NCBI GenBank assembly: GCA_964373675.1 | Contig: CAYJVO010000001.1 | Span: forward strand, 4,327-68,326 | Origin: an uncultured Candidatus Saccharibacteria bacterium | Lineage (GTDB): Bacteria; Patescibacteriota; Minisyncoccia; UBA6257; WO2-44-18 | DNA: 64,000 nt | Direction of reading: 5' to 3' | Shown: positions 2,204 through 61,170 of the stretch, piece after piece | Layout: every line of letters starts with the position of its first letter | How positions within the stretch are numbered: position 1 is the first letter of the stretch | Translations under genes and position numbers: made by a program | The notes under the pieces: generated by a model | What the model saw: the letters and a program-made list of their open reading frames with translations, nothing else | Database searches by the model: none | Told to the model about the DNA's origin: nothing

Positions 2204-3748
2204 TTATTTTATTAAATAAACTAAAGCATCGCGGCTTTCCAGTTTTTTCTCAAAGCGAGAGTCGTTTTCTAGGAAGAAATTTACCGCCGGGTTTTGGTTT
2301 TTATTCAAAATGATATACTTAGCATTAAAATTGCTTTTTAAAACCTCATAAGTGTCCTCCAGCATTTCCCGCGTGCAGGCCTCGGCACCGCAGGTTTTTT
2401 TAGTCACTAAATCAGCGGACAGATAATGAAATTTCCAGTAAAGTTCGGGCGAATAAGCGTATTGGAAAATCGGGTCTAGGCCGCCGACATAATAGTTATG
2501 CCGGTTCCAATAAAAAAGCGGCGAAAAATGACTCCAATGCAAGTTAAAAACGATTTCGTTCAACCGGCTGCTTTCTTTTAGCCATAATGCCCCCTCCTTT
2601 AAGTAATCCGACGGATAGGCAAAACGATTAATGGAATTAATACTTTGATAAGCGGAGTAAGTAACGGAATACAGAGAAAAAATTATTAAAATCGTCGCCA
2701 CCCATTGCTGTGGTAAGTCCCGTCTAAAGGTTTTTAATGCTGGCAAAAGATAACTGACAACGGCGGCAATTAAAATCCATCCAAAAGCAACCCATAAGTT
2801 ATAAGTTCTGCGAGCGACAATAATGGACAGAAGAAACGAAATTATAGAAATAGCACCAGAGCTTAAAAGAATTGTTTTTTGCCAATTTTCCGCCCGATGA
2901 ATCCGTTTGGTTAATATCCAAGCCATTAAAACAGCCGCGGCTATCCAAATCAATAAATAAAGACCAAAATTAGAAAATAAAATTTTTAACCCCAGCGGAA
3001 AATTTTCTTCTCCAAAAAGCAGTGGCAAGCCGCTCTGTTTTTCAATGATCTGCCGCAAAACTTGGATGTAAAAAAGTTTGATTGCGTCGATAGGATTGGG
3101 TCTGGCTAGCCAGCCGACTGTAACTCCGAAAAATGCGCCCAAGCCGACTAGCCAAACAAAACGCTTTTCTATCAACAATTTAACCCCCAGTACTGCGGCG
3201 GCGATAAAAATTGGCAGCCACACGAAATTAAGATGGACCCAGGCAATGCCAAATGAAGCAAGAAACGCCCCCCAAAAATTTTCTTTGACAAAAAAATAAA
3301 ACAAAAGCGGCGCCAGCGCCAGAGAAATTAATTGGGGACGAACCATCAAAAGCTGGGTTAAAACATTGGGAGCGGAAAAAAAGAGTAAAACCGGCCATAA
3401 AAGTGGCCATTTAAAATTCAGCCGGCGCGCGATTAAAAAGTACAGTATTAAAAGTCCGGCCGTGAAAACTATACCCGCAATTTTAAATGACCAAGGTTCG
3501 GGGAGCCAGGAGAAGGGGATTAATAAAACTCCGAAACCGTGCCAAAGAGAAGCGGAAAAGGTTTTCATAACCGAGTACTGGGTCCAAGGGAAATCAACTG
3601 TAAAAATTCCCTTCTCGGTCAAAAGCCGGCTGAAGCCAAAATAGTAAAAAGTATCAGGGTCGGCGATATTGGCAGAGGCAAAATGAAAAACTGCCGAAAC
3701 AATAATCAGTAATAACAACGCAACCGGCCAATGATATTTTTGCGCCAT
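2204..3748 (-). CDS. Polytopic membrane protein, putative GT-C-like glycosyltransferase or hypothetical
   Basis: 514 aa with many predicted TM helices followed by a C-terminal soluble domain. Co-oriented and abutting the two glycosyltransferase genes. No diagnostic motif recognised. Confidence 0.4.
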   Translation of the reverse strand: MAQKYHWPVALLLLIIVSAVFHFASANIADPDTFYYFGFSRLLTEKGIFTVDFPWTQYSVMKTFSASLWHGFGVLLIPFSWLPEPWSFKIAGIVFTAGLLILYFLIARRLNFKWPLLWPVLLFFSAPNVLTQLLMVRPQLISLALAPLLFYFFVKENFWGAFLASFGIAWVHLNFVWLPIFIAAAVLGVKLLIEKRFVWLVGLGAFFGVTVGWLARPNPIDAIKLFYIQVLRQIIEKQSGLPLLFGEENFPLGLKILFSNFGLYLLIWIAAAVLMAWILTKRIHRAENWQKTILLSSGAISIISFLLSIIVARRTYNLWVAFGWILIAAVVSYLLPALKTFRRDLPQQWVATILIIFSLYSVTYSAYQSINSINRFAYPSDYLKEGALWLKESSRLNEIVFNLHWSHFSPLFYWNRHNYYVGGLDPIFQYAYSPELYWKFHYLSADLVTKKTCGAEACTREMLEDTYEVLKSNFNAKYIILNKNQNPAVNFFLENDSRFEKKLESRDALVYLIK

Positions 3749-3751
3749 ACT

Positions 3752-4738
3752 TTATTTCACTACTTCGCGAAGTTTCTGAAGCACTGAGATTAGAGATTCC
3801 AAAACCGAGGCCAACTCTTTTTTAATAGCCGAGACAGACTGAGTGGAGGCGCATAAACTGCTGAAGTTTGAACCGCCGGATTCGTCATACCAATAGCGGT
3901 AGTGCAGCTTGCTTTCCGTATCAACGTTTTCCGGATCAATTGCTCCGTAAATATCGCCTTGCTTAAACAGTAAAATTCCTTGGTAGCAAGAACTAATTCT
4001 ATTGGTGGTTGGATTAACGATGAGAGCTGAAGGATCATAAAGCCGAACGGCTTCTTTATGCTTTGTAAAAGTATAATTAGCGGCATCAGTAAAATTGCAA
4101 ATATTTGAAATGCCTTGGTAGCCAATTATCTCAACATTCTCGCACGCGGAGAATTGCGAGCGAGTTTGATTGGCAATGAAAGCAGCCGGATCGCCCGGCG
4201 TAAGATAGCCGCGATGTTCGCGGGCATAACCGCCAGTATAAACAAATTTAGCCGGCCCGATGCTGAAAGTTCGGTTATTATCCACAATCCCGGTGCCGGT
4301 TTTGATTAACGGTCCTACAGGCGCGAGGACGGGTGGGGGTGGCGTTGGGGCTGTAGTCGCGGTCGGTTGTTCTTCTACAGGAGGCGTTAGTGTCGGTGTT
4401 GGAGCGGCTGGAACTTGGGCAAGCTCTGCTAATTTGGCACGGGTTTTTGGACCAACAATTCCTACTGGTTCAATGCCGTTTTTTGTCTGAAATCTTTTTA
4501 CTGCCGCTTCAGTTAGTTTACCAAAATAACCAGTTGCCAAACCTTCGGGATAAAGTTCTTTGTCTTGAGCTAAATACTGCTGAATGGCCTTTACATCATC
4601 TCCGCGCGTGCCCAAAAACAAAGCCCGATTTATCACCGGCGCGACTATAGAAGGAGTTGTAGTTTGAGCTAGCGCTGTAATGCCGATTGCCAGCGTTAAA
4701 ATCAGACCCAATAATCTTTTAACACCCATTGGTTTCAT
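3752..4738 (-). CDS. Secreted protein with peptidoglycan-binding (PG_binding_1-like) domain and Pro/Thr-rich linker
   Basis: Signal peptide MKPMGVKRLLGLILTLAIGITALA. The LFLGTRGDDVKAIQQYL...GYFGKLTEAAVKRFQTKNGIEPVGIVGPKT motif matches the PG-binding repeat. A PT-rich linker is followed by an unknown C-terminal domain. Confidence 0.7.
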   Translation of the reverse strand: MKPMGVKRLLGLILTLAIGITALAQTTTPSIVAPVINRALFLGTRGDDVKAIQQYLAQDKELYPEGLATGYFGKLTEAAVKRFQTKNGIEPVGIVGPKTRAKLAELAQVPAAPTPTLTPPVEEQPTATTAPTPPPPVLAPVGPLIKTGTGIVDNNRTFSIGPAKFVYTGGYAREHRGYLTPGDPAAFIANQTRSQFSACENVEIIGYQGISNICNFTDAANYTFTKHKEAVRLYDPSALIVNPTTNRISSCYQGILLFKQGDIYGAIDPENVDTESKLHYRYWYDESGGSNFSSLCASTQSVSAIKKELASVLESLISVLQKLREVVK

Positions 4739-4782
4739 TATAATAATTTCAAAGTAAATACACTACCTAAGTTATTCCTTAT

Positions 4783-4859
4783 TGGCTGGGGAGCTAGGGC
4801 TCGAACCTAGAAGTCTCCTGCTCCAAAGGCAGGCGTGTTACCAATTACACCACTCCCCA
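4783..4859 (-). tRNA. tRNA-Gln (anticodon UUG)
   Basis: The reverse complement folds as a cloverleaf: acceptor UGGGGAG/CUCCCCA with the U1:A72 pair typical of bacterial tRNA-Gln. Anticodon stem CCUGC/GCAGG, loop CUUUGGA, T-loop TTCGAGC, encoded CCA. Confidence 0.85.
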
Positions 4860-4976
4860 ATATTTGCATAAAGCATCTACTTTGAGAATAACTAAATCGA
4901 GCACTAAATGTGCTCGATTTAGTTTACCTTTTTTCTTACCCTTCGTAAATCCCAGACCTGTAGAGGTATTCATTAC

Positions 4977-5058
4977 TTTATTCTCCTTCGCCGAAAACCC
5001 CGGGCGGCCTACTCCGCCGAAGTAGCTTCAGCTACGAAGGCTGGATAAGGCCGTGGAG
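4977..5058 (+). repeat. Dispersed ~85-bp element, family A copy 1 (candidate structured RNA)
   Basis: Near-identical copies at 22721-22810 and 32015-32105, all on the + strand. Contains palindromic hairpins GTAGCTTCAGCTAC. Confidence 0.6.
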
Positions 5059-5068
5059 CTACATTTAT

Positions 5069-5096
5069 TTGACATAATTCGTCAAAGCGCTATAAT
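5069..5096 (+). promoter_or_regulatory. Sigma70-like promoter (TTGACA-16nt-TATAAT)
   Basis: Exact -35 and -10 consensus hexamers with a 16-nt spacer, about 50 nt upstream of the CDS at 5148. Confidence 0.5.
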
Positions 5097-5147
5097 TTAT
5101 AATATATAGAAAGGTCGGAAAAATCAGTATATGTTTTTAATTTAAGT

Positions 5148-5906
5148 ATGCGTTTTCGCGTTTTATTTATTATAGGAACACTTGCTGTTCTTTTAGTCGT
5201 CGGTGTCGCTCAGGCGAACCATTCTTGGGGAGGGTATCACTGGGCGCGTACCGCCAACCCATTCACCTTGAAGCTTGGCGACAACGTTGGAGCGGTCTGG
5301 GACGGCCACCTTACTACCGCATCAGGCGATTGGAGCGTGTCTTCGGCGTTAGACACCACAATTATTGCCGGTCAATCCAAAGGGAATTGTCGGCCCACCA
5401 ACGGGCGGGTAGAGGTTTGCAACAGAACCTACGGTTTCAATGGCTGGCTTGGTTTGGCGCAGATCTGGGTTACCAGCGATCAGCATATCACCAACGGTGT
5501 GGTCAAACTCAACGACACTTATTTCAACACCCCGACTTATAACACTCCGGCCTGGCGAAATCTTGTAGTGTGTCAGGAAATCGGCCATACGATTGGCCTT
5601 GATCATCAAGACGAGAATTTCAGCAATCCACCACTCGGCACTTGCATGGATTACTCAAGCGATCCTACGCCCAACCAGCATCCTAATCAGCATGACTACG
5701 ACCAACTGGAAGCGATCTACGCTCACCTTGATTCAGTAACCACGCTTTCCCAATCAAACGTTTCTAATAGGCGTGATGCCAATCACGAAGATTCGGGAGA
5801 ATGGGGTAAGTCCAGGAAGCGTGACGCTCGCGGCCGAACATCCATCTACGAACAAGATCTCGGCAAAGGCGAAAAGGTGTTCACCTTTGTATTCTGGACA
5901 GAATAG
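5148..5906 (+). CDS. Secreted metzincin-like protein (putative zinc metalloprotease, non-canonical motif)
   Basis: Signal peptide MRFRVLFIIGTLAVLLVVGVAQA. The QEIGHTIGLDH stretch fits HExxHxxGxxH with Gln in place of the first His. A downstream Cys/Met segment (GTCMDYSSDP) resembles a Met-turn, snapalysin-like. Confidence 0.5.
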   Translation: MRFRVLFIIGTLAVLLVVGVAQANHSWGGYHWARTANPFTLKLGDNVGAVWDGHLTTASGDWSVSSALDTTIIAGQSKGNCRPTNGRVEVCNRTYGFNGWLGLAQIWVTSDQHITNGVVKLNDTYFNTPTYNTPAWRNLVVCQEIGHTIGLDHQDENFSNPPLGTCMDYSSDPTPNQHPNQHDYDQLEAIYAHLDSVTTLSQSNVSNRRDANHEDSGEWGKSRKRDARGRTSIYEQDLGKGEKVFTFVFWTE

Positions 5907-5934
5907 GTACGCAGGAAAAACCTTCGTAAAAAAA

Positions 5935-5964
5935 ACAGCCCGCAGACAAGGGGCTGTTTTTTTT
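5935..5964. terminator. Bidirectional rho-independent terminator
   Basis: CAGCCCGCAGACAAGGGGCTG hairpin flanked by an A-run upstream and a T8 run downstream, between convergent genes. Confidence 0.7.
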
Positions 5965-5966
5965 GC

Positions 5967-6115
5967 TTCATCCCGCCGTCGGCGGGATGAAGCCCGAAAC
6001 CACGGGCCGCCACGCCCCGCCAAAGGCGTGGGGCTCCGCCGAGTCTGACTCGGCGGAGCCGAGTCTGACTCGGCTCCGCTTACAGCGAGGCCAAGGGTAA
6101 GGTCGGGGAGTGGCT
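5967..6115. repeat. Cluster of GC-rich perfect palindromic hairpins
   Basis: CTTCATCCCGCCG-TC-GGCGGGATGAAG, CCACGCC...GGCGTGG, and CTCCGCCGAGTC-T-GACTCGGCGGAG followed by a second CCGAGTCTGACTCGG unit. Local GC is far above surrounding DNA. Confidence 0.6.
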
Positions 6116-6595
6116 TCATAAACTAATCACTCCAGGCTCCACGGCATCTTTATCAATTATAAATTGCATCATAAATGGTTCTCCATCCTTATTAGTAATG
6201 GGTAGGTCGTTTGCCGAATTAAACACTTGATCGCCATCATCTCGATGAAGCATTGCAAAAAGTGTTTCGCCGTCTTGCGACATACGCGAGATAGGTATTG
6301 AGAAATTCTCGTTATCGCCGGCAGAAAGAAGGCGGCTTTTGCCGATTACAGCGCCTGGATTTCCGTTTTTTTCTTCGTGGATAACCACAAAACCGTCCGC
6401 CTCAAACGCGGCAAAACTAACCGCAATTTTTTCTCCAGGTATCTGGTCCGGAACATAAATCGCGTTCGCTCCCAAACGAAAACCACTCGTTGTTTCTTTG
6501 GTATTTTCAAAACCAATTTTATATCCAAAGTAATAACTGAATCCGATTCCAAGCGTAAAAACCGCGATTAACAAGAAAAGAACTTTTGTTTTCAT
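6116..6595 (-). CDS. Hypothetical membrane-anchored protein
   Basis: 159 aa with N-terminal TM helix MKTKVLFLLIAVFTLGIGFSYYFGY. No recognisable domain. Confidence 0.5.
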   Translation of the reverse strand: MKTKVLFLLIAVFTLGIGFSYYFGYKIGFENTKETTSGFRLGANAIYVPDQIPGEKIAVSFAAFEADGFVVIHEEKNGNPGAVIGKSRLLSAGDNENFSIPISRMSQDGETLFAMLHRDDGDQVFNSANDLPITNKDGEPFMMQFIIDKDAVEPGVISL

Positions 6596-9050: not shown

Positions 9051-9144
9051 GACTACGAAAATAGGCTACGAAATACGAAAAAGTACGAAATTTATTAAGT
9101 TTTATGCTTTTCGTATATTCGTAAAAATTTCGTATTTCGTAGCC
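9051..9144. repeat. Family B palindromic 'TACGAAA' element, copy B1
   Basis: GGCTACGAAATACGAAA...TTTCGTATTTCGTAGCC terminal inverted repeats around an AT-rich core. Fills the spacer between the GH-like gene and scpA. Confidence 0.7.
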
Positions 9145-9152
9145 AACTTATT

Positions 9153-16195: not shown

Positions 16196-16206
16196 AATGA
16201 GCAGGT

Positions 16207-16332
16207 CTACAAAATACGAAATCTTACCAATATACGAAACCGATTTGGTATATTCGCCTGCCTGCCGGCCTTGCTCCGCCGAAGCGCTACGCGAAGGCGA
16301 TGCAGGCAGGTACTATTTTCGTATTTAGTAAC
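16207..16332. repeat. Family B element, long variant with GC-rich inner palindrome, copy B2
   Basis: Near-identical to 46728-46858. Outer arms CTAC.AAATACGAAA/TTTCGTATTT.GTAG and inner arms CCTGCCTGCC...GCAGGCAGG. Fills the murG-gltX spacer. Confidence 0.75.
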
Positions 16333-16338
16333 TTATAG

Positions 16339-17790
16339 ATGATTACAAAATTAAAAAAAATCCGAACCCGCATCGCGCCTTCGCCAACGGGTTATTTTCA
16401 TATTGGCACTGCCCGAACCGCGCTTTTTAACTGGCTTTTTACCAAACAGCAGGGCGGGAAATTTATTTTGCGCATTGAGGATACTGATTTAGAGCGATCC
16501 GATAAAAAATTTGAAAAGGATATTATGGAGAATCTTAAATGGCTTGGCCTGGATTGGGACGAAGGACCAGTCGCAGCTGCGACTGGTCAAAGATCAAAGA
16601 TCAAAGGTCAAATGTATGTAGGCGACTGCGGGCCGTATCGGCAAAGTGAACGATTAGAAACCTATAAAAAATATATAAACAGACTACTGGATCAAAAACT
16701 TGCTTATTATTGCTTTTGCACCCCGGAAGAACTGGAAGAACAGCGGCAAGCAATGTTGGTTCAGGGATTAGCCCCTAAATACAGCGGAAAATGCAGCGCC
16801 TTGAGTGCAATAATAACCAAAAAGAATCTAGCAGTTCAAAAATCGCACATTATTCGTTTTCGGGTGCCGCAAACAACCGTAACTTTTAAGGACATTATTC
16901 GCGGCCCCATCAGCTTTGATGCCTCATTGATTGGAGATATCGCTATCGCTAAAGATCCGGAAATTCCGCTTTATAATTTCGCCGTGGTGGTGGACGACTA
17001 TGAAATGGAAATTTCTCATGTGATTCGCGGCGAAGACCATGTTGCCAATACCCCAAAACAAATCTTACTTCAAAAAGCTTTAGAATTTCCCCAGCCGGAA
17101 TACGCCCATCTCCCTCTTATTTTGGACCCGGATCGGCATAAAATGTCCAAAAGATATTCCGCTGTTTCGGTAGCCGAATATCGCAACCAGGGATATTTGC
17201 CGGAAGCAATGATTAATTTTATGGCGCTGCTTGGCTGGCATCCCGGACCGGTAACACCAAAAGGTTTTGAAAGAGAAATTTTCAGCTTACAAGAATTAAT
17301 TCAAGAGTTTAATTTGGAGCGAGTGCAAAAAGCCGGCGCGGTTTTCAATATTGAAAAACTAAACTGGATTAACGCGCAGTATATTAAAAAACTTTCAGAT
17401 AAAGAGCTGGCGAAAATGCTTAATTTTAAAAACCTTAAAGTGATTGCTTTAGCGAAAGACAGAATGAAAAACCTTTCGGATTTTCACGAATTAGCTGACT
17501 GGGCAATAAAATTGCCGGATTATTCCGCAGACCTTTTAATCTGGAAGCAAACATCGAAAGAGGTGATAAAGGAAAATTTAAGGCGGGCGCTGGAAATTTT
17601 AGAATCCGGAGAAAGAAATGACTTAATGAAGCTGGCAGAAGAACGGGGCAGGGGTGAGGTATTGTGGCCGGTCCGCGCCGCTCTATCCGGCAAAGACGCG
17701 TCTCCGGGCCCGCTGGAAATGATTGAAGCTTTGGGTAAAAAAGAAGCAATCAAGCGGCTGAAAATCGCCATCAAAAAACTTGAATCATGA
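16339..17790 (+). CDS. gltX: Glutamyl-tRNA synthetase
   Basis: Class I HIGH-type SPTGYFHIGTART and a KMSKR motif. 483 aa. Confidence 0.9.
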   Translation: MITKLKKIRTRIAPSPTGYFHIGTARTALFNWLFTKQQGGKFILRIEDTDLERSDKKFEKDIMENLKWLGLDWDEGPVAAATGQRSKIKGQMYVGDCGPYRQSERLETYKKYINRLLDQKLAYYCFCTPEELEEQRQAMLVQGLAPKYSGKCSALSAIITKKNLAVQKSHIIRFRVPQTTVTFKDIIRGPISFDASLIGDIAIAKDPEIPLYNFAVVVDDYEMEISHVIRGEDHVANTPKQILLQKALEFPQPEYAHLPLILDPDRHKMSKRYSAVSVAEYRNQGYLPEAMINFMALLGWHPGPVTPKGFEREIFSLQELIQEFNLERVQKAGAVFNIEKLNWINAQYIKKLSDKELAKMLNFKNLKVIALAKDRMKNLSDFHELADWAIKLPDYSADLLIWKQTSKEVIKENLRRALEILESGERNDLMKLAEERGRGEVLWPVRAALSGKDASPGPLEMIEALGKKEAIKRLKIAIKKLES

Positions 17791-22250: not shown

Positions 22251-22700
22251 GTGGATGCTTCAGCGTTCATTCGTCTTTGGGGAAACGAAGGACAGATTTA
22301 TTTAGTACTGAACGATCAGAAAAAAATAATTAACAAACTATCCAGTGATGTAATCGGAATGAAACCGATCGGCTGGGGACTGCCCGGCGGGGGAGTTAAA
22401 GACGGAGAAGATCCTTTGCAGGCGGCTCTAAGAGAACTGCGCGAAGAAACTCCGTTTAATGCGCGCAGAATTAACCCAAAGCCGGTGATAGTAAATAAAA
22501 AAAATGGCCATCATATCAATTTTGTGTTTGACGCTTATGATCCGGAGGAAATTAAACCCGATTGGAAACCGACGGATGATCCTAAACTGGGAGTGATCGG
22601 CGGCAGATGGTTTACAATTGAGGAATGCGAAGCCGAGGAGCGTGACGGCATACTCATTTATAAATCACACCTTCGTTATATTTTTCATAGGGAACAATAA
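22251..22700 (+). CDS. NUDIX hydrolase
   Basis: Nudix box GGGVKDGEDPLQAALRELREETPF (Gx5Ex7REUxEExGU). Confidence 0.8.
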   Translation: MDASAFIRLWGNEGQIYLVLNDQKKIINKLSSDVIGMKPIGWGLPGGGVKDGEDPLQAALRELREETPFNARRINPKPVIVNKKNGHHINFVFDAYDPEEIKPDWKPTDDPKLGVIGGRWFTIEECEAEERDGILIYKSHLRYIFHREQ

Positions 22701-22725
22701 TCCCGCCACGGCGGGATTATTTATT
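22699..22725 (+). terminator. Rho-independent terminator
   Basis: ATCCCGCC-ACG-GCGGGAT hairpin followed by ATTTATT. Confidence 0.6.
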
Positions 22726-22810
22726 CTCCTTCGCCGAAAACCCCGGACGGCCTACTCCGCCGAAGTAGCTTCAGTTACGAAGGCTGGATAAGGCCGTGGA
22801 GTTTCATTTG
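22721..22810 (+). repeat. Family A element, copy 2
   Basis: Differs from copy 1 by a few substitutions, including C to T giving GTAGCT/AGTTAC, which stays G:U-compatible. Confidence 0.6.
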
Positions 22811-26668: not shown

Positions 26669-26723
26669 AAGGTAAAAAGTCTATAAAGTCCCTAAAGTAA
26701 TTTATAAACTTTATAGAGGTGAG

Positions 26724-26812
26724 GGTATTCTATTTTTGCGATCGCTGGGATAAAATACCTAAATACTTAACTAACTAATAGGCTTTAAGGACTTGATGGA
26801 CTTTTCACTAAA
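26724..26812 (+). repeat. Family C ~90-110 bp element, copy C1
   Basis: GGTATTCTATTTTTGCGATCGCTGGGATAAAATACCTAAATACTTAACTAACTAAT...GGACTTGATGGACTTTTCACTA. An inverted copy lies at 40163-40249 and a partial copy at 61014-61070. Contains the 8-bp palindrome GCGATCGC. Confidence 0.7.
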
Positions 26813-31713: not shown

Positions 31714-32001
31714 ATGGCGTTTAAAAAGGAATGCTTGATAGAAAAAGCTACAGAAGTAGAGATATTGGACGCGCTTCGTAAAGCAGGCCATCCGTTGGAT
31801 AGACACGAATTTTTTTTACACATTTTTCTTAATAGATGCGAACTTATTGGCTACGATGGCAGTAATATAGAAAGATCGGTGACTCTTTTGGAATTTTACG
31901 ATAAATGCATAGCGGGGAATGTATTACAGACAGTATGGGCTATGATTGACCAAGGGAAAATCTGCTTAAACTTTGATAGAAAATTGGAATTGCCCAAATA
32001 A
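31714..32001 (+). CDS. Hypothetical protein
   Basis: 95 aa with no recognisable domain. Followed directly by family A copy 3. Confidence 0.4.
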   Translation: MAFKKECLIEKATEVEILDALRKAGHPLDRHEFFLHIFLNRCELIGYDGSNIERSVTLLEFYDKCIAGNVLQTVWAMIDQGKICLNFDRKLELPK

Positions 32002-32014
32002 CATTGGGCTTTTT

Positions 32015-32105
32015 TATTCTCCTTCGCCGAAAACCCCGGGCGGCCTACTCCGCCGTAGTAGCCTACGGCTACGAAGGCTGGATAAGACCGTGGAGCTTCA
32101 TTTCC
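32015..32105 (+). repeat. Family A element, copy 3
   Basis: Carries the CCGTAG/CTACGG and GTAGCC/GGCTAC variants, which are compensatory relative to copies 1 and 2. Confidence 0.6.
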
Positions 32106-32131
32106 AACTGCTATCCCGCGGGATAGCAGTT
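32106..32131. repeat. Family D 'CTGCTATC' hairpin, copy D1
   Basis: AACTGCTATCC-CGCG-GGATAGCAGTT perfect hairpin. The same stem sequence recurs in D2 and D3. Confidence 0.6.
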
Positions 32132-32223
32132 TCGGGCTACTGAATTATTCATTAAAGTAAAATTTACCCGCCCCCTAAGACGGTTTTTTGTTTTTCAAAA
32201 AGAAAAACCGGAAATGTTCGCAC

Positions 32224-32275
32224 TTTGACGCGTCAAAACACTGCTATCATGCGTGATAGCAGTGTTTCTTTTACG
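32224..32275 (+). repeat. Family D composite: TTGACGCGTCAA palindrome plus CACTGCTATCA hairpin (D2), terminator-like
   Basis: TTTGACGCGTCAAAACACTGCTATCA-TGCGT-GATAGCAGTGTT then TCTTTTAC. Near-exact inverted copy at 36231-36279. Confidence 0.65.
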
Positions 32276-36230: not shown

Positions 36231-36279
36231 CACTGCTATCATACATACTAGCAGTGTTTTGACGCGTCAAAACACTGCT
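36231..36279. repeat. Family D composite (D3), inverted relative to D2
   Basis: CACTGCTATCA-TACATAC-TAGCAGTG hairpin plus the perfect 30-bp palindrome AGCAGTGTTTTGACGCGTCAAAACACTGCT. The palindrome encodes the last 4 codons and stop of the downstream minus-strand gene. Confidence 0.65.
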
Positions 36280-46727: not shown

Positions 46728-46858
46728 TGACTACGAAATACGAAATCTTACCAATATACGAAACCGATTTGGTATATTCGCTTGCCTGCCGGCCTTGCTC
46801 CGCCGAAGCGCTACGCGAAGGCGATGCAGGCAGGTACTATTTTCGTATTTGGTAGCTA
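46728..46858. repeat. Family B element, long variant, copy B3 (between rplF and rpsH)
   Basis: About 95% identical to 16207-16332. Fills the 137-bp rplF-rpsH spacer from start codon to stop codon. Confidence 0.75.
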
Positions 46859-47239
46859 CTACCATATTTCAAATAGTATTACTCCCCCGACCTTGGCTTT
46901 GCGCGCATCTTTAAAAGACATGATGCCTTGGGGTGTGGAAATCACTCCTAATCCATAACCCTGTCTTACCTTTTTTAAATCGCGGTAGCCCGCATATATT
47001 CGGCGCGACGGTTTGCTCACAAATTTAATTTCTTCAATTATGCCCCCGCCGTCTTTGTATTTTAATTTAATTTCAATAATTCTCTTGGGCATCCTCCCTT
47101 TCTTTTCTGCCGATTCTATAAACTTATTTTCGGCCAGAATTTGAGCAATAGCTAAATCCATACCAGAATAAGCCGTTTTTACGGTTTCTTTTTTCGCCTT
47201 TTGGGCGTTTTTGATTTTAATTAAGAGATCTGTGTACAT
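46859..47239 (-). CDS. rpsH: 30S ribosomal protein S8
   Basis: MYTDLLIKIKNAQKAKKETV N-terminus. Confidence 0.9.
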   Translation of the reverse strand: MYTDLLIKIKNAQKAKKETVKTAYSGMDLAIAQILAENKFIESAEKKGRMPKRIIEIKLKYKDGGGIIEEIKFVSKPSRRIYAGYRDLKKVRQGYGLGVISTPQGIMSFKDARKAKVGGVILFEIW

Positions 47240-50528: not shown

Positions 50529-50604
50529 GGCTACGAAATACGAAATTTTACTAATATACGAAATTGGTTTTGTATATTCGTACTATTTTCGTATTTAGTG
50601 GCTG
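50529..50604. repeat. Family B element, short variant, copy B4 (rpsC-rplV spacer)
   Basis: GGCTACGAAATACGAAATTTTACTAATATACGAAATTGGTTTTGTATATTCGTACTATTTTCGTATTTAGTGGCTG. Near-identical to 52366-52438. Confidence 0.75.
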
Positions 50605-51105
50605 TTATACGCTTTTCCTTCTAAATAATCTCTTGAAGAATCCCGGCCTTTCTTGTTTGACTTCTTTTTCTTTTTGCTGCTGCGGTTTTAGAGCCTTCGC
50701 CTTCGGTACTTTCTTTTTCTTTGCTTTTTTTGGAGGCGGCATAATTACAAACCGGCTCGCCAGTGGCTGAGCCGCTTCCTCCAAAGTTAAAATTACATGG
50801 CTCATTTTTTTCTGAATCGGGGTCGCTCGTCCCTGGGCCCGCGGCATGAATCTTTTGAGCATTGGGCCCTGATTAACAATGATTTGCTTAATAAACAGCC
50901 GGCTAGCATCCAGTTTTTGATTATTTTTTGCATTAGCAACCGCTGAATGCAGTAACTTTAATAATGGCTTGGCAGATCGCTGACTTCTCATTAATAATTG
51001 GGCTTCGGCTTCCTGAATCGGCAAACCTCGTAAAATATCGGCGATCAACCTGACTTTGCGAGGCGCAATACTCAAATTGTTTAATTTTACTGTTTCTTGG
51101 TTCAT
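50605..51105 (-). CDS. rplV: 50S ribosomal protein L22 with Lys-rich C-terminal extension
   Basis: L22 core (APRKVRLIADILRG), then ~55 aa of extra K/P/Q-rich sequence. Confidence 0.85.
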   Translation of the reverse strand: MNQETVKLNNLSIAPRKVRLIADILRGLPIQEAEAQLLMRSQRSAKPLLKLLHSAVANAKNNQKLDASRLFIKQIIVNQGPMLKRFMPRAQGRATPIQKKMSHVILTLEEAAQPLASRFVIMPPPKKAKKKKVPKAKALKPQQQKEKEVKQERPGFFKRLFRRKSV

Positions 51106-52365: not shown

Positions 52366-52438
52366 AACTACGATACGAAATTTTACTAATATACGAAATT
52401 GGTTTTGTATATTCGTACTATTTTCGTATTTGGTAGCC
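52366..52438. repeat. Family B element, short variant, copy B5 (rplB-rplW spacer)
   Basis: Near-identical to B4. Fills the spacer from the rplW stop to the rplB start. Confidence 0.75.
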
Positions 52439-52439
52439 A

Positions 52440-52721
52440 TTAATGTGGTAATATATCTAATTTTTGGCCTTCTTTCAGTGTAACGATAGCTTTCTTGTAC
52501 CCGGGCTTTATTCCAACCATTTTTCCCAGCCGGCGCGGCTTAGGCCGAGTATTTACGATATTAATCCGAATCACATCAACTTTATAAATCTCCTTGATGG
52601 CTTTTTTTATTTCCGGGCTTGCGGCTTTATCATCAACCAAAAAGATGTATTTGCCAAAAGCGCTCATCCGAGTTGCTTTTTCAGTAATAATTGGTCTTTT
52701 GACTAAAAATTTGTTGATCAT
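52440..52721 (-). CDS. rplW: 50S ribosomal protein L23
   Basis: 93 aa, KRPIITEKAT...KYIFLVD motif. Confidence 0.85.
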   Translation of the reverse strand: MINKFLVKRPIITEKATRMSAFGKYIFLVDDKAASPEIKKAIKEIYKVDVIRINIVNTRPKPRRLGKMVGIKPGYKKAIVTLKEGQKLDILPH

Positions 52722-53844: not shown

Positions 53845-54171
53845 CTAAACCATCTTGATTTCAATATCTACGCCGGCGGGTAAATTAAGTTTAGATAAAG
53901 ATTCTATAATTGCCTGGTTTGGATTAAGAATGTCAATTAGTCTTTTATGAACCCGCAGCTCAAACTGCTCCCGAGAGTCTTTATGAACGAAAGTTGAACG
54001 GTTAACGGTATACTTTTTAATCTCGGTGGGCAGCGGAATCGGACCAATAACCTCCGCATCCTGACGCTTAGCGGCTTCTATAATCTGCTTGCAGGAATTA
54101 TCAATTAATTTATGGTCATAGGCTTTAATCCGAAGCCGTAATTTTTCTTTTTCAACTTCCTTCTTTACCAT
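53845..54171 (-). CDS. rpsJ: 30S ribosomal protein S10
   Basis: [15 protein letters not shown]...[20 protein letters not shown] motifs. Confidence 0.9.
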
Positions 54172-54174
54172 TGC

Positions 54175-54253
54175 GATCCGCTACTAAATACGAAATTTTT
54201 ACGAATATACTAAATGTTTTTCGTACTTTCGTAAATTTTCGTATTTAGTAGCC
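54175..54253. repeat. Family B element, short variant, copy B6, directly abutting the rpsJ start codon
   Basis: CTACTAAATACGAAATTTTTACGAATATACTAAATGTTTTTCGTACTTTCGTAAATTTTCGTATTTAGTAGCC. The same element with the same junction sequence (GCGATCCG-CAT) precedes rpsG at 58218-58295. Confidence 0.75.
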
Positions 54254-54289
54254 AATGAACTTATTGTTTGATCCGTATATTGGAGCAGT

Positions 54290-57717: not shown

Positions 57718-57746
57718 GAATTCGTACTCATTTCGTATTTCGTAGC
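57718..57746. repeat. Family B half-element (single arm) in the rpsG-fusA spacer
   Basis: TTCGTACTCATTTCGTATTTCGTAGC. Right-arm sequence only. Confidence 0.5.
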
Positions 57747-58214
57747 CTACCAGGCGAAGTGCGCAAAAGCCCGGTTGGCTTCTGCCATTCTATGAGTATC
57801 CTGCTTCTTTTTAATCGCGGCTCCCTCGTTTTTAACTGCAAGCAGCAGCTCTTCCGCTAACTTCCGGGCCATTGGTTTGCCTTTTTTGGCCCGGGCAGCC
57901 CCAATCAGCCATCGGGCGGCTAAAACAAATCGCCGGTCAACGCGAACCTCGCGGGGAACTTGATAATTGGCGCCACCGATTCTTCGGGAAACGACTTCCA
58001 CCGCTGGAGCGGTATTTTCTAAGGCTTTCTCAAAAACCGAAAGAGGGTCCTGCTTGGTCTCTTTTTTTATAATATCAAAGGTGTTGTATAAAACTTTCTC
58101 TGCAACGGTTTTTTTACCCTCCTTCATTAAATAATTAATAAAGCGTCCAACAGCCACGCTTTTATACTCTAAATCCGGCGTATGTTCTCTTTTGTAATTG
58201 CGTTTCTTACGCAT
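57747..58214 (-). CDS. rpsG: 30S ribosomal protein S7
   Basis: 155 aa with [11 protein letters not shown]...[11 protein letters not shown] motifs. Confidence 0.9.
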
Positions 58215-58217
58215 TGC

Positions 58218-58295
58218 GATCCGCTACTAAATACGAAATTTTTACGAATATACTAAGTGTTTTTCGTACTTTCGTAAATTTTCGTATTTCGTAGC
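58218..58295. repeat. Family B element, short variant, copy B7 (rpsL-rpsG spacer)
   Basis: Differs from B6 at 2-3 positions. Confidence 0.75.
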
Positions 58296-58298
58296 TAA

Positions 58299-58721
58299 TT
58301 AACTTGTTGCTTCCTTCGGCATCTTCGCGCCATACCCCGACCGTTGCTGCCTTCTTGCTTCCACGCCAGAGGCGTCCAGGACGCCGCGCACAATATGATA
58401 ACGGACGCCCGGCAAATCTTTTGCGCGTCCGCCGCGAACCATAACCACTGAGTGTTCCTGTAAATTATGACCTTCTCCCGGAATATAAGCGGTTATTTCC
58501 ATTCCGTTGGTTAAACGCACGCGCGCCACTTTGCGCAAAGCAGAGTTTGGTTTTTTTGGCGTCGTAGTAAAAACCTTCAAACAGACGCCGCGCTTAAATG
58601 GCGACGCCACCTTGACCGGTTTATTTTTAAGCGTGTTGAAATAACGCCTCATGGCCGGCGCTTTGGACTTATACACAGTCACTTTTCTTCCCTTTTTAAT
58701 AAGCTGCCTGATGGTCGGCAT
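58299..58721 (-). CDS. rpsL: 30S ribosomal protein S12 with short C-terminal extension
   Basis: [12 protein letters not shown]...[11 protein letters not shown]...HNLQEHS motifs. 140 aa. Confidence 0.9.
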
Positions 58722-60991: not shown

Positions 60992-61013
60992 TAATGGAGG
61001 CGATGGAAGCAAA

Positions 61014-61070
61014 GGTATTCTATTTTTGTGATCGCTAGGATAAAATACCTAAATATTTAACTAACTAATA
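61014..61070 (+). repeat. Family C element, partial copy C3, immediately 3' of tRNA-Ser on the opposite strand
   Basis: GGTATTCTATTTTTGTGATCGCTAGGATAAAATACCTAAATATTTAACTAACTAATA. Only the first half of the family C consensus is present. Confidence 0.65.
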
Positions 61071-61085
61071 GTCACGCTAAGGAAG

Positions 61086-61170
61086 CGGAGGGGGCGAGAT
61101 TCGAACTCGCGAACCCTTGCGGGTTGCACGCTCTCCAAGCGTGTGCACTAGACCACTATGCGACCCCTCC
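61086..61170 (-). tRNA. tRNA-Ser (anticodon GGA), class II with long variable arm
   Basis: Reverse complement: acceptor GGAGGGG/CCCCUCC, 3-bp D stem, anticodon stem CACGC/GCGUG with loop UUGGAGA, variable arm ACCCGCAAGGGU, T-loop TTCGAAT, discriminator G. CCA is not encoded. Confidence 0.85.

Follow-up and report, generated by a model that had tools for sequence, protein, structure and literature searches.

Insertion sequences of the IS200/IS605 type insert downstream of a conserved T-rich pentanucleotide, with their target specificity lying 5' and not 3'. They produce no target duplication and possess no terminal inverted repeats, and the ORF A transposase binds their subterminal palindromes. 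The pentanucleotide of group A IStrons is TTGAT, ATTAT or TTTAT (PMC4227781), and IS606 inserts next to TTTAT or TTAT (PMC3154945). REP sequences, which are also palindromic, are species-specific, and an unpaired GTAG or GTGG precedes their hairpin foot by 0-2 nt on the 5' side (PMC6006769; PMC3733652). The repeat described here, family A, inserts 3' of the same TTTAT as IS606 and the group A IStrons, lacks target duplication and terminal inverted repeats, has subterminal hairpins with strand-specific structure, and ends on the right in TTCAT, which resembles the target. Insertion 3' of TTTAT without duplication, together with strand-specific hairpins, is the IS200/IS605 signature, which makes an ORF-less derivative of that group the best reading of family A: probably a non-autonomous miniature transposable element comparable to a PATE or MITE. 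Unlike a classical MITE, which is derived from a DDE element and moves by cut and paste, it has neither terminal inverted repeats nor a target-site duplication.

The window, meaning the whole stretch of 64,000 nt that was analyzed, is part of a CPR/Patescibacteria contig with a typical S10-spc ribosomal operon. The nearest named relatives of its SerS, from Candidatus Harrisonbacteria and Paceibacteria, were approximately 68% identical. A sequence-only reading of the window had proposed three same-strand copies of more than 90% identity. We recovered all three on the plus strand at 4977-5066, 22720-22809 and 32013-32103 (flank included), with identities across the element proper of 95.2% (copies 1 and 2), 92.9% (copies 1 and 3) and 90.5% (copies 2 and 3). 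The start proposed for copy 1, 4977, was correct, but the proposed end, 5058, was approximately 6-8 nt too short. Copies 1 and 2 have the sequence CCGAAGTAGCTTCAG(C/T)TACGAAGG, and copy 3 has the sequence CCGTAGTAGCCTACGGCTACGAAGG. When up to 3 mismatches were allowed, a 33-nt core occurred 3 times in the window versus 0 times in 100 dinucleotide shuffles. GC skew was weak across 4-36 kb, where the three plus-strand copies lie. The neighbors agreed with that reading: tRNA-Gln beside copy 1, a NUDIX gene with its terminator upstream of copy 2 and serS downstream of it, and ychF approximately 385 nt downstream of copy 3. Both copies 2 and 3 begin directly after plus-strand terminators, the T-tracts of which end in TTTAT at the left ends of the copies; in two relatives (L122 and L123), the terminator is followed by serS without the element. 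Copy 1 lies upstream of, and outside, the transcript of a perfect promoter. Coordinates are given in the table.

Table. Positions of family A copies, parts of the copy 1 fold, and neighboring or other repeated features in the window.
Feature	Position	Strand	Remark
tRNA-Gln	4783-4859	-	beside copy 1
TTTAT left flank of copy 1	4977-4981	+	target-derived, outside the inserted DNA; TTTAT is kept in empty sites
Family A copy 1, element proper, TCTCCTTCGCC...GGAGCTACAT, 83 nt	4982-5064	+	sequence, fold
Copy 1 fold, CUCC with GGAG	4983-4986 with 5055-5058		closes the structure
Copy 1 fold, 7-bp stem	5004-5010 with 5048-5054		
Core module CCTAC-TCCGCC-GAA-[GTAGC TTCA GCTAC]-GAA-GGC-T-GGA in copy 1	5009-5045	+	elsewhere also in unrelated frames, in either orientation
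Copy 1 fold, UCCGCC / GGC-U-GGA	5013-5018 with 5039-5045		
Copy 1 fold, symmetric GAA/GAA internal loop	5019-5021 and 5036-5038		
Copy 1 fold, apical hairpin	5022-5035		on top
Perfect sigma-70-like promoter, TTGACA/16-nt spacer/TATAAT	5069-5096	+	just 3' of copy 1, pointing away
ORF, probably spurious	5754-6119	-	starts inside the multi-hairpin run
Candidate diverged, expanded multi-hairpin relative, right end ...GGGGAGTGGCTTCAT	5961-6119	+	after a terminator T-tract; resembles metagenome element L157; lower confidence
AT-rich palindromic repeat copies	9064-9147, 16205-16349, 46729-46873, 50529-50607, 52373-52442, 54161-54269, 57720-57750, 58204-58312		
AT-rich repeat with nested core variant TCCGCC-GAA-GCG CTA CGC-GAA-GGCG	16207-16349	+	
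NUDIX gene terminator hairpin	22696-22721	+	T-tract ends in TTTAT adjoining copy 2
TTTAT flank of copy 2	22720-22724	+	
Family A copy 2, element proper, 83 nt	22725-22807	+	
69-nt direct repeat	26713-26781 and 61003-61071		
Terminator hairpin	31992-32009	+	T-tract TTTTTTAT adjoining copy 3
TTTAT flank of copy 3	32013-32017	+	
Family A copy 3, element proper, 84 nt	32018-32101	+	
Terminator-like hairpin CACTGCTATC-N-GATAGCAGTG	32106-32134, 32239-32267, 36231-36259		
Second AT-rich repeat copy with nested core	46731-46873	+	92% identical; rpsH-rplF spacer
tRNA-Ser	61085-61170	-	

Filled and empty versions of a site were found in two cases, and in both the insertion was 3' of TTTAT. A 136-nt element of Candidatus Uhrbacteria (L201) lies between the stop codon of an amino-acid permease gene and the folD terminator, and four orthologous loci of other Uhrbacteria genomes (L248-L251) were exactly without it, with a gap of 0; their DnaB proteins belong to the same 90% cluster and their flanks are 75-89% identical. 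The empty junction reads ...GATTTTTTAT^CGCAC and the filled one ...GATTTTTTAT|TCTCC...CTTCAT|CGCAC. The second case is a pair of Nitrospira loci, filled with 86 nt in L161 and empty in L213, with the junction TTTAT^TTGG and again a gap of 0; the empty site may be paralogous rather than orthologous to the filled one. TTTAT, being present in the empty sites, belongs to the target, which leaves TCTCC...TTCAT as the element proper, the inserted DNA spanning TCTCCTTCGCCGAA... to ...GGAGCTTCAT. No flank duplication was found in 75 sites, as at the two empty sites, although an AT at the junction leaves its position uncertain by 2 nt and a 2-nt duplication is formally possible. In 58 of the 75 elements, the base after the right end is T. 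The two ends, TCTCCTTCGCC and GGAGCTTCAT, share only CTCC/GGAG, so that true terminal inverted repeats are absent. For the metagenome copies, the search pattern itself required the TTTAT flank, and unbiased support for it comes from the two empty sites, L125 and the three copies in the window. Other orthologous comparisons (L252, L255 and L256-L259) yielded no extra empty site. Terminator adjacency was only modestly enriched among the matches listed (15 of 116 sites versus 5 in a shuffled control). Copies 2 and 3 of the window would lie directly behind terminators because TTTAT is common at the ends of T-tracts in AT-rich CPR genomes.

Two other features were seen among the loci. In one Nealsonbacteria genome, a different insertion of approximately 100 nt (L257, 15424-15525) consists of two tandem units GAACCTGCCCTTCGGGCAGAACCTTG-TTCTTCGCCAAAGCTCGAA, with the words TTCGCCAA.GCT common to composite family members; it is missing in two other genomes (L256 and L259). 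The flanks of L161 and L213, and positions 2100-2300 of the Nitrospira-type locus L073, contain odd simple repeats, with GGTCTGTCTG/CAGACAGACC words and runs of a CAGTGAG heptamer.

Beyond the window, the invariant 19-nt end TTCGGCGAAGGAGAATAAA (minus strand) had at least 120 matches in metagenomes. Among the matches listed, the elements fell into size classes of about 44, 86, 136 and 160-220 nt, and 75 unique full-length elements had the common ends TCTCC... and ...GGAGCTTCAT. The basic 44-nt unit is TCTCCTTCGCCGAATA-CCCCGYAG-CTTG-CTRCGGGG-AGCTTCAT. The 86-nt class, which includes the window copies, is this unit with a 42-nt core in its loop in either orientation, and the classes of approximately 136 and 160-220 nt are composites with 2-3 hairpins. 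The 42-nt core is TCCGCC-GAA-hairpin-GAA-GGC, and the hairpin loop may hold the core or further hairpin modules. In L125 the outer frame is that of family A with the core inverted; the core was thus seen in both orientations inside one and the same outer frame. The central 40 nt, CCTAC-TCCGCC-GAA-[hairpin]-GAA-GGC-N-GGA, were also found in unrelated GC-rich IMG/VR contigs. Elements were often located at contig ends, as is expected of a high-copy repeat.

The hosts could be named for several loci. One was Nitrospira, the ClpC of L242 being 94-98% identical to named Nitrospira proteins; others were Candidatus Uhrbacteria (L201, L232 and L173), Candidatus Sungbacteria (L146 and L164), Candidatus Nealsonbacteria (L233) and an Elusimicrobia genome (L152), in addition to the Harrisonbacteria-like window. 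Hosts from at least three phyla, with GC contents of 32-62%, thus share these ends. An exact scan with the 5' 23-mer, a pattern that held a variable stem, returned only a chance coding match (L001) in genome contigs and none in metagenomes. The core pattern CTCCGCCGAAG-N-CGAAGGC was rejected as a search string: it gave more than 120 matches in GC-rich viral contigs, mostly chance, with a few true cores among them. There was no family match in the plasmid and cultured-phage collections, and a literature search by sequence strings and by topics (CPR or Nitrospira with REP or MITE) did not find a description of the family. With no Rfam model either, family A is apparently undescribed. Its modular nesting, its GAA/GAA loop motif and its spread over CPR, Nitrospira and an Elusimicrobia genome make it notable.

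The fold of copy 1 is a nested structure (table), and both strands of the window copies give the same nested shape, with no clear strand asymmetry in folding among the three window copies by themselves. Fold z-scores were -3.1 for copy 1, -3.3 for copy 2 and -5.9 for a 139-nt composite. The base differences quoted earlier were all present (GAAG..CTTC with GTAGC/GCTAC in copies 1 and 2; GTAG..CTAC with GTAGCC/GGCTAC in copy 3), and the C to T change in copy 2 does convert GCTAC to GTTAC, a G.U pair on the plus strand. Hairpin-preserving change also proved to be family-wide: in 24 distinct sequences of the terminal hairpin, 99% of cells were paired and 5 of 8 pairs had changed on both sides, a value reached by 0 of 500 shuffles and not approached by any slid register. 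The apical stem of the core alternates between GUAGC/GCUAC and GCAGC/GCUGC, with pair 2 being TA in 14 cases and CG in 13. Single mismatches, when read in the minus-strand orientation of the window, were C.A or A.C in 21 cases and G.T or T.G in 0; they are therefore wobble pairs in the plus orientation (5'-TTTAT|TCTCC...), and only the TTTAT-bearing strand, the plus strand of the window, tolerates G.T/G.U pairs. This top strand had the lower MFE in 67 of 95 representatives, as in an 86-nt example (-40.3 versus -32.6 kcal/mol) and a 44-nt example (-15.4 versus -11.6 kcal/mol). The hairpin starts 16 nt from the left end and stops 8 nt from the right end. The stem of the terminal hairpin, CCGUAG...CUGCGG with a U.G pair (for example in L140 and L161), presumably resembles 16S rRNA helix 45 (CCGUAGG-GGAA-CCUGCGG), and its left arm holds CUCCUU, which we take to be like the anti-Shine-Dalgarno tail; both likenesses may be coincidental.

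The sequence-only reading had taken compensatory change as the mark of selection on RNA. The covariation stands, but the step to an RNA gene or to RNA-level selection is unsupported: family A is inserted DNA in 2 filled/empty pairs, and hairpins read as single-stranded DNA by a transposase would be expected to give the same signature. An RNA gene is no longer needed to explain the covariation, although secondary RNA effects of the kind that REPs have are possible. Covariation of the kind looked for in a novel structured RNA was found, and by itself it does not separate RNA from single-stranded DNA. A dedicated structured-RNA gene is not what the evidence indicates; no Rfam family matched the window copy at the gathering threshold or at E <= 10, and none matched any of 9 loci at E <= 0.1.

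The elements could instead act in cis as structured RNA transcribed by read-through at gene 3' ends or in operons, as REP stabilizers are. They would then shield transcripts from 3' exonucleases or influence how transcription ends or how translation proceeds, with the hairpins and GAA/GAA loops under RNA-level selection. We consider this role unlikely; it may coexist with DNA mobility. It would accommodate the covarying stems and the strand-specific wobble pairs, but G.T tolerance and stable GAA loops suit single-stranded DNA equally. In its favor, the core and the outer frame alike keep the purine-rich GCC-GAA-[helix]-GAA-GGC motif on a single strand; against it, the core lies in both orientations within one frame. 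The rarity of elements between divergent genes also favors the role; however, the folding strand was co-directional with neighboring genes at 30 of 51 informative sites and opposite at 21 (p = 0.26), copies 2 and 3 follow terminators, and copy 1 precedes the next promoter, so that the consistent placement and orientation in transcription units looked for in a novel RNA was not seen. The core of the AT-rich repeat copy at 46731-46873, being within the minus-strand ribosomal operon, is antisense to local transcription, which also argues against the role. The significant folds argue for the role in RNA, as does an orthologous Nitrospira copy conserved at approximately 95% between flanks 79-89% identical, whereas the lack of an Rfam family argues against it.

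It is quite unlikely, in our estimation, that the family is more than selfish DNA, in that the top-strand modules (GCC-GAA-helix-GAA-GGC) are transcribed as omega-RNA-like or other guide or scaffold RNAs acting in trans with a TnpB- or TnpA-type protein, or that the ends record recent DNA exchange across phyla. The likeness to TnpB omega-RNA, the guide RNA scaffold derived from IS200/IS605 right ends, is that the family A RNA would be top-strand and right-end, with TTTAT as the candidate transposon-adjacent motif. Unlike that system, family A has no TnpB gene near it and no Rfam match, and its elements are mostly shorter than known scaffolds. Were the exchange to be true, it would have taken place in groundwater communities, for example between CPR cells and their hosts, and would be recorded in ends that CPR episymbionts, Nitrospira and an Elusimicrobia genome share almost unchanged.

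The IS200/IS605-type reading suggests how family A might move. A Y1 HUH (TnpA-like) transposase supplied in trans would bind the hairpins on the single-stranded top strand and would cut after TTTAT at the left and after TTCAT at the right. The single-stranded circle thus freed would be re-inserted 3' of another TTTAT. Compensatory changes would then result from selection that keeps the DNA strand foldable, or from hairpin-templated correction to the same effect, and the nesting and inversion of the core could come about by hairpin-loop inversion or by separate insertion. Family A differs from known IS200/IS605 elements in several respects. The ends of such elements normally carry one hairpin each, whereas the smallest family A elements, the 44-nt minimal units, possess a single hairpin only. 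Family A is also strongly modular, with its nested, invertible 42-nt core, and has the same ends in three phyla including CPR. Finally, neither the window nor approximately 1 Mb of loci yielded an autonomous partner (tnpA or tnpB within matching ends). Candidates for an autonomous parent between distant left and right ends were only chance pairs and were rejected, as were recurrent neighboring proteins as a partner; the top clusters of these were spurious ORFs through the repeat, and the RAYT-like genes among them were unlinked.

Those genes bear on whether family A is an element of the REP/BIME (REPIN) type, mobilized or maintained by a RAYT (TnpA-REP) transposase. Family A resembles the REP/BIME-RAYT system in having short palindromes outside genes that form mosaic clusters and reach a high copy number; recognition of a single strand by a Y1 HUH enzyme is presumed for both, with secondary RNA roles possible. 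The intergenic location, the copy number (contigs often break at the element), the BIME-like modularity and the presence of GTAG/CTAC words would all suit such an origin. The GTAG of family A, however, is inside stems or 3' of the palindrome, so that the unpaired 5' GTAG/GTGG tag is lacking; the ends are conserved across three phyla rather than being species-specific; and the element has a defined TTTAT insertion site. Y1/RAYT-like genes were present in 3 of the 120 loci listed, in Nitrospira, but in L130, L209 and L217 the repeats on either side of these genes are inverted repeats of their own, unrelated to family A, and the window has no RAYT gene. Without the 5' GTAG tag and RAYT linkage, membership in REP/BIME fails, and we regard such an origin as improbable. 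The genes in L217 (4780-5760) and L130 (7230-8290) encode proteins of approximately 290-310 aa with an HYHL or HVHL motif, and their 18-22-nt inverted repeats, unrelated to family A, are as in the TIRYT type.

Pneumococcal BOX and Neisseria Correia elements resemble family A in their reusable modules, intergenic location and stable hairpins, often near terminators or promoters. Unlike family A, Correia elements end in terminal inverted repeats and duplicate a TA, and BOX lacks a defined insertion signature; family A has no sequence similarity to either.

The opposite strand was also considered as coding, for a small protein or leader peptide running from ATGAAG... to ...AAGGAGAATAAA, with the element serving as a micro-ORF or as a Shine-Dalgarno sequence for the downstream gene. 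Many metagenome copies are spanned exactly by ATG...TAA, and remain in frame after insertion of the 42-nt core, but the window copies stop after 1-10 codons. The residues vary freely with stem covariation (PAASYG, PVASYG, LRPASRSV), which argues that the structure is kept and the peptide is not. An AAGGAG lies at the element end and an ATG 9 nt after copy 1; however, the 42-aa ORF that follows copy 1 overlaps tRNA-Gln, and ATG right after AATAAA shows no enrichment (6 cases among the roughly 120 copies listed versus approximately 7.5 expected). Given the short window ORFs, the free change of residues and the lack of ATG enrichment, we rejected this coding role as extremely improbable.

If family A is an ORF-less IS200/IS605-type element, a testable transposition mechanism replaces an unsupported call of a new structured RNA, and compensatory changes in repeats can arise from transposition of single-stranded DNA. 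The family is abundant enough to break metagenome assemblies and also creates spurious ORFs. Its occurrence in both streamlined CPR genomes and Nitrospira is unusual, as REP-like repeats are normally species-specific, and it could be used in groundwater communities to trace the activity of transposases or the exchange of DNA. TTTAT gives a defined target with which to look for the cognate TnpA or TnpB.

Other repeats were observed in the window and loci. The multi-hairpin run at 5961-6119 is GC-rich, has four or five hairpins and a duplicated CCGAGTCTGACTCGG unit, and lies between convergent genes. A second, AT-rich palindromic repeat family has the arms GGCTACGAAATACGAAA ... TTTCGTATTTCGTAGCC; many of its copies separate adjacent ribosomal-protein genes in the S10-spc operon, which is on the minus strand, and two hold a nested GC-rich core related to family A. 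Two of the three CACTGCTATC-N-GATAGCAGTG hairpins are between family A copy 3 and ychF. The two copies of the 69-nt direct repeat are 88% identical and hold GCGATCGC, the second copy being 14 nt from tRNA-Ser. In the Nitrospira contig L156, a group II intron (3744-5525; Rfam D1-D4, 118.6 bits, plus domain V/VI) starts approximately 75 nt 3' of the 139-nt composite element.
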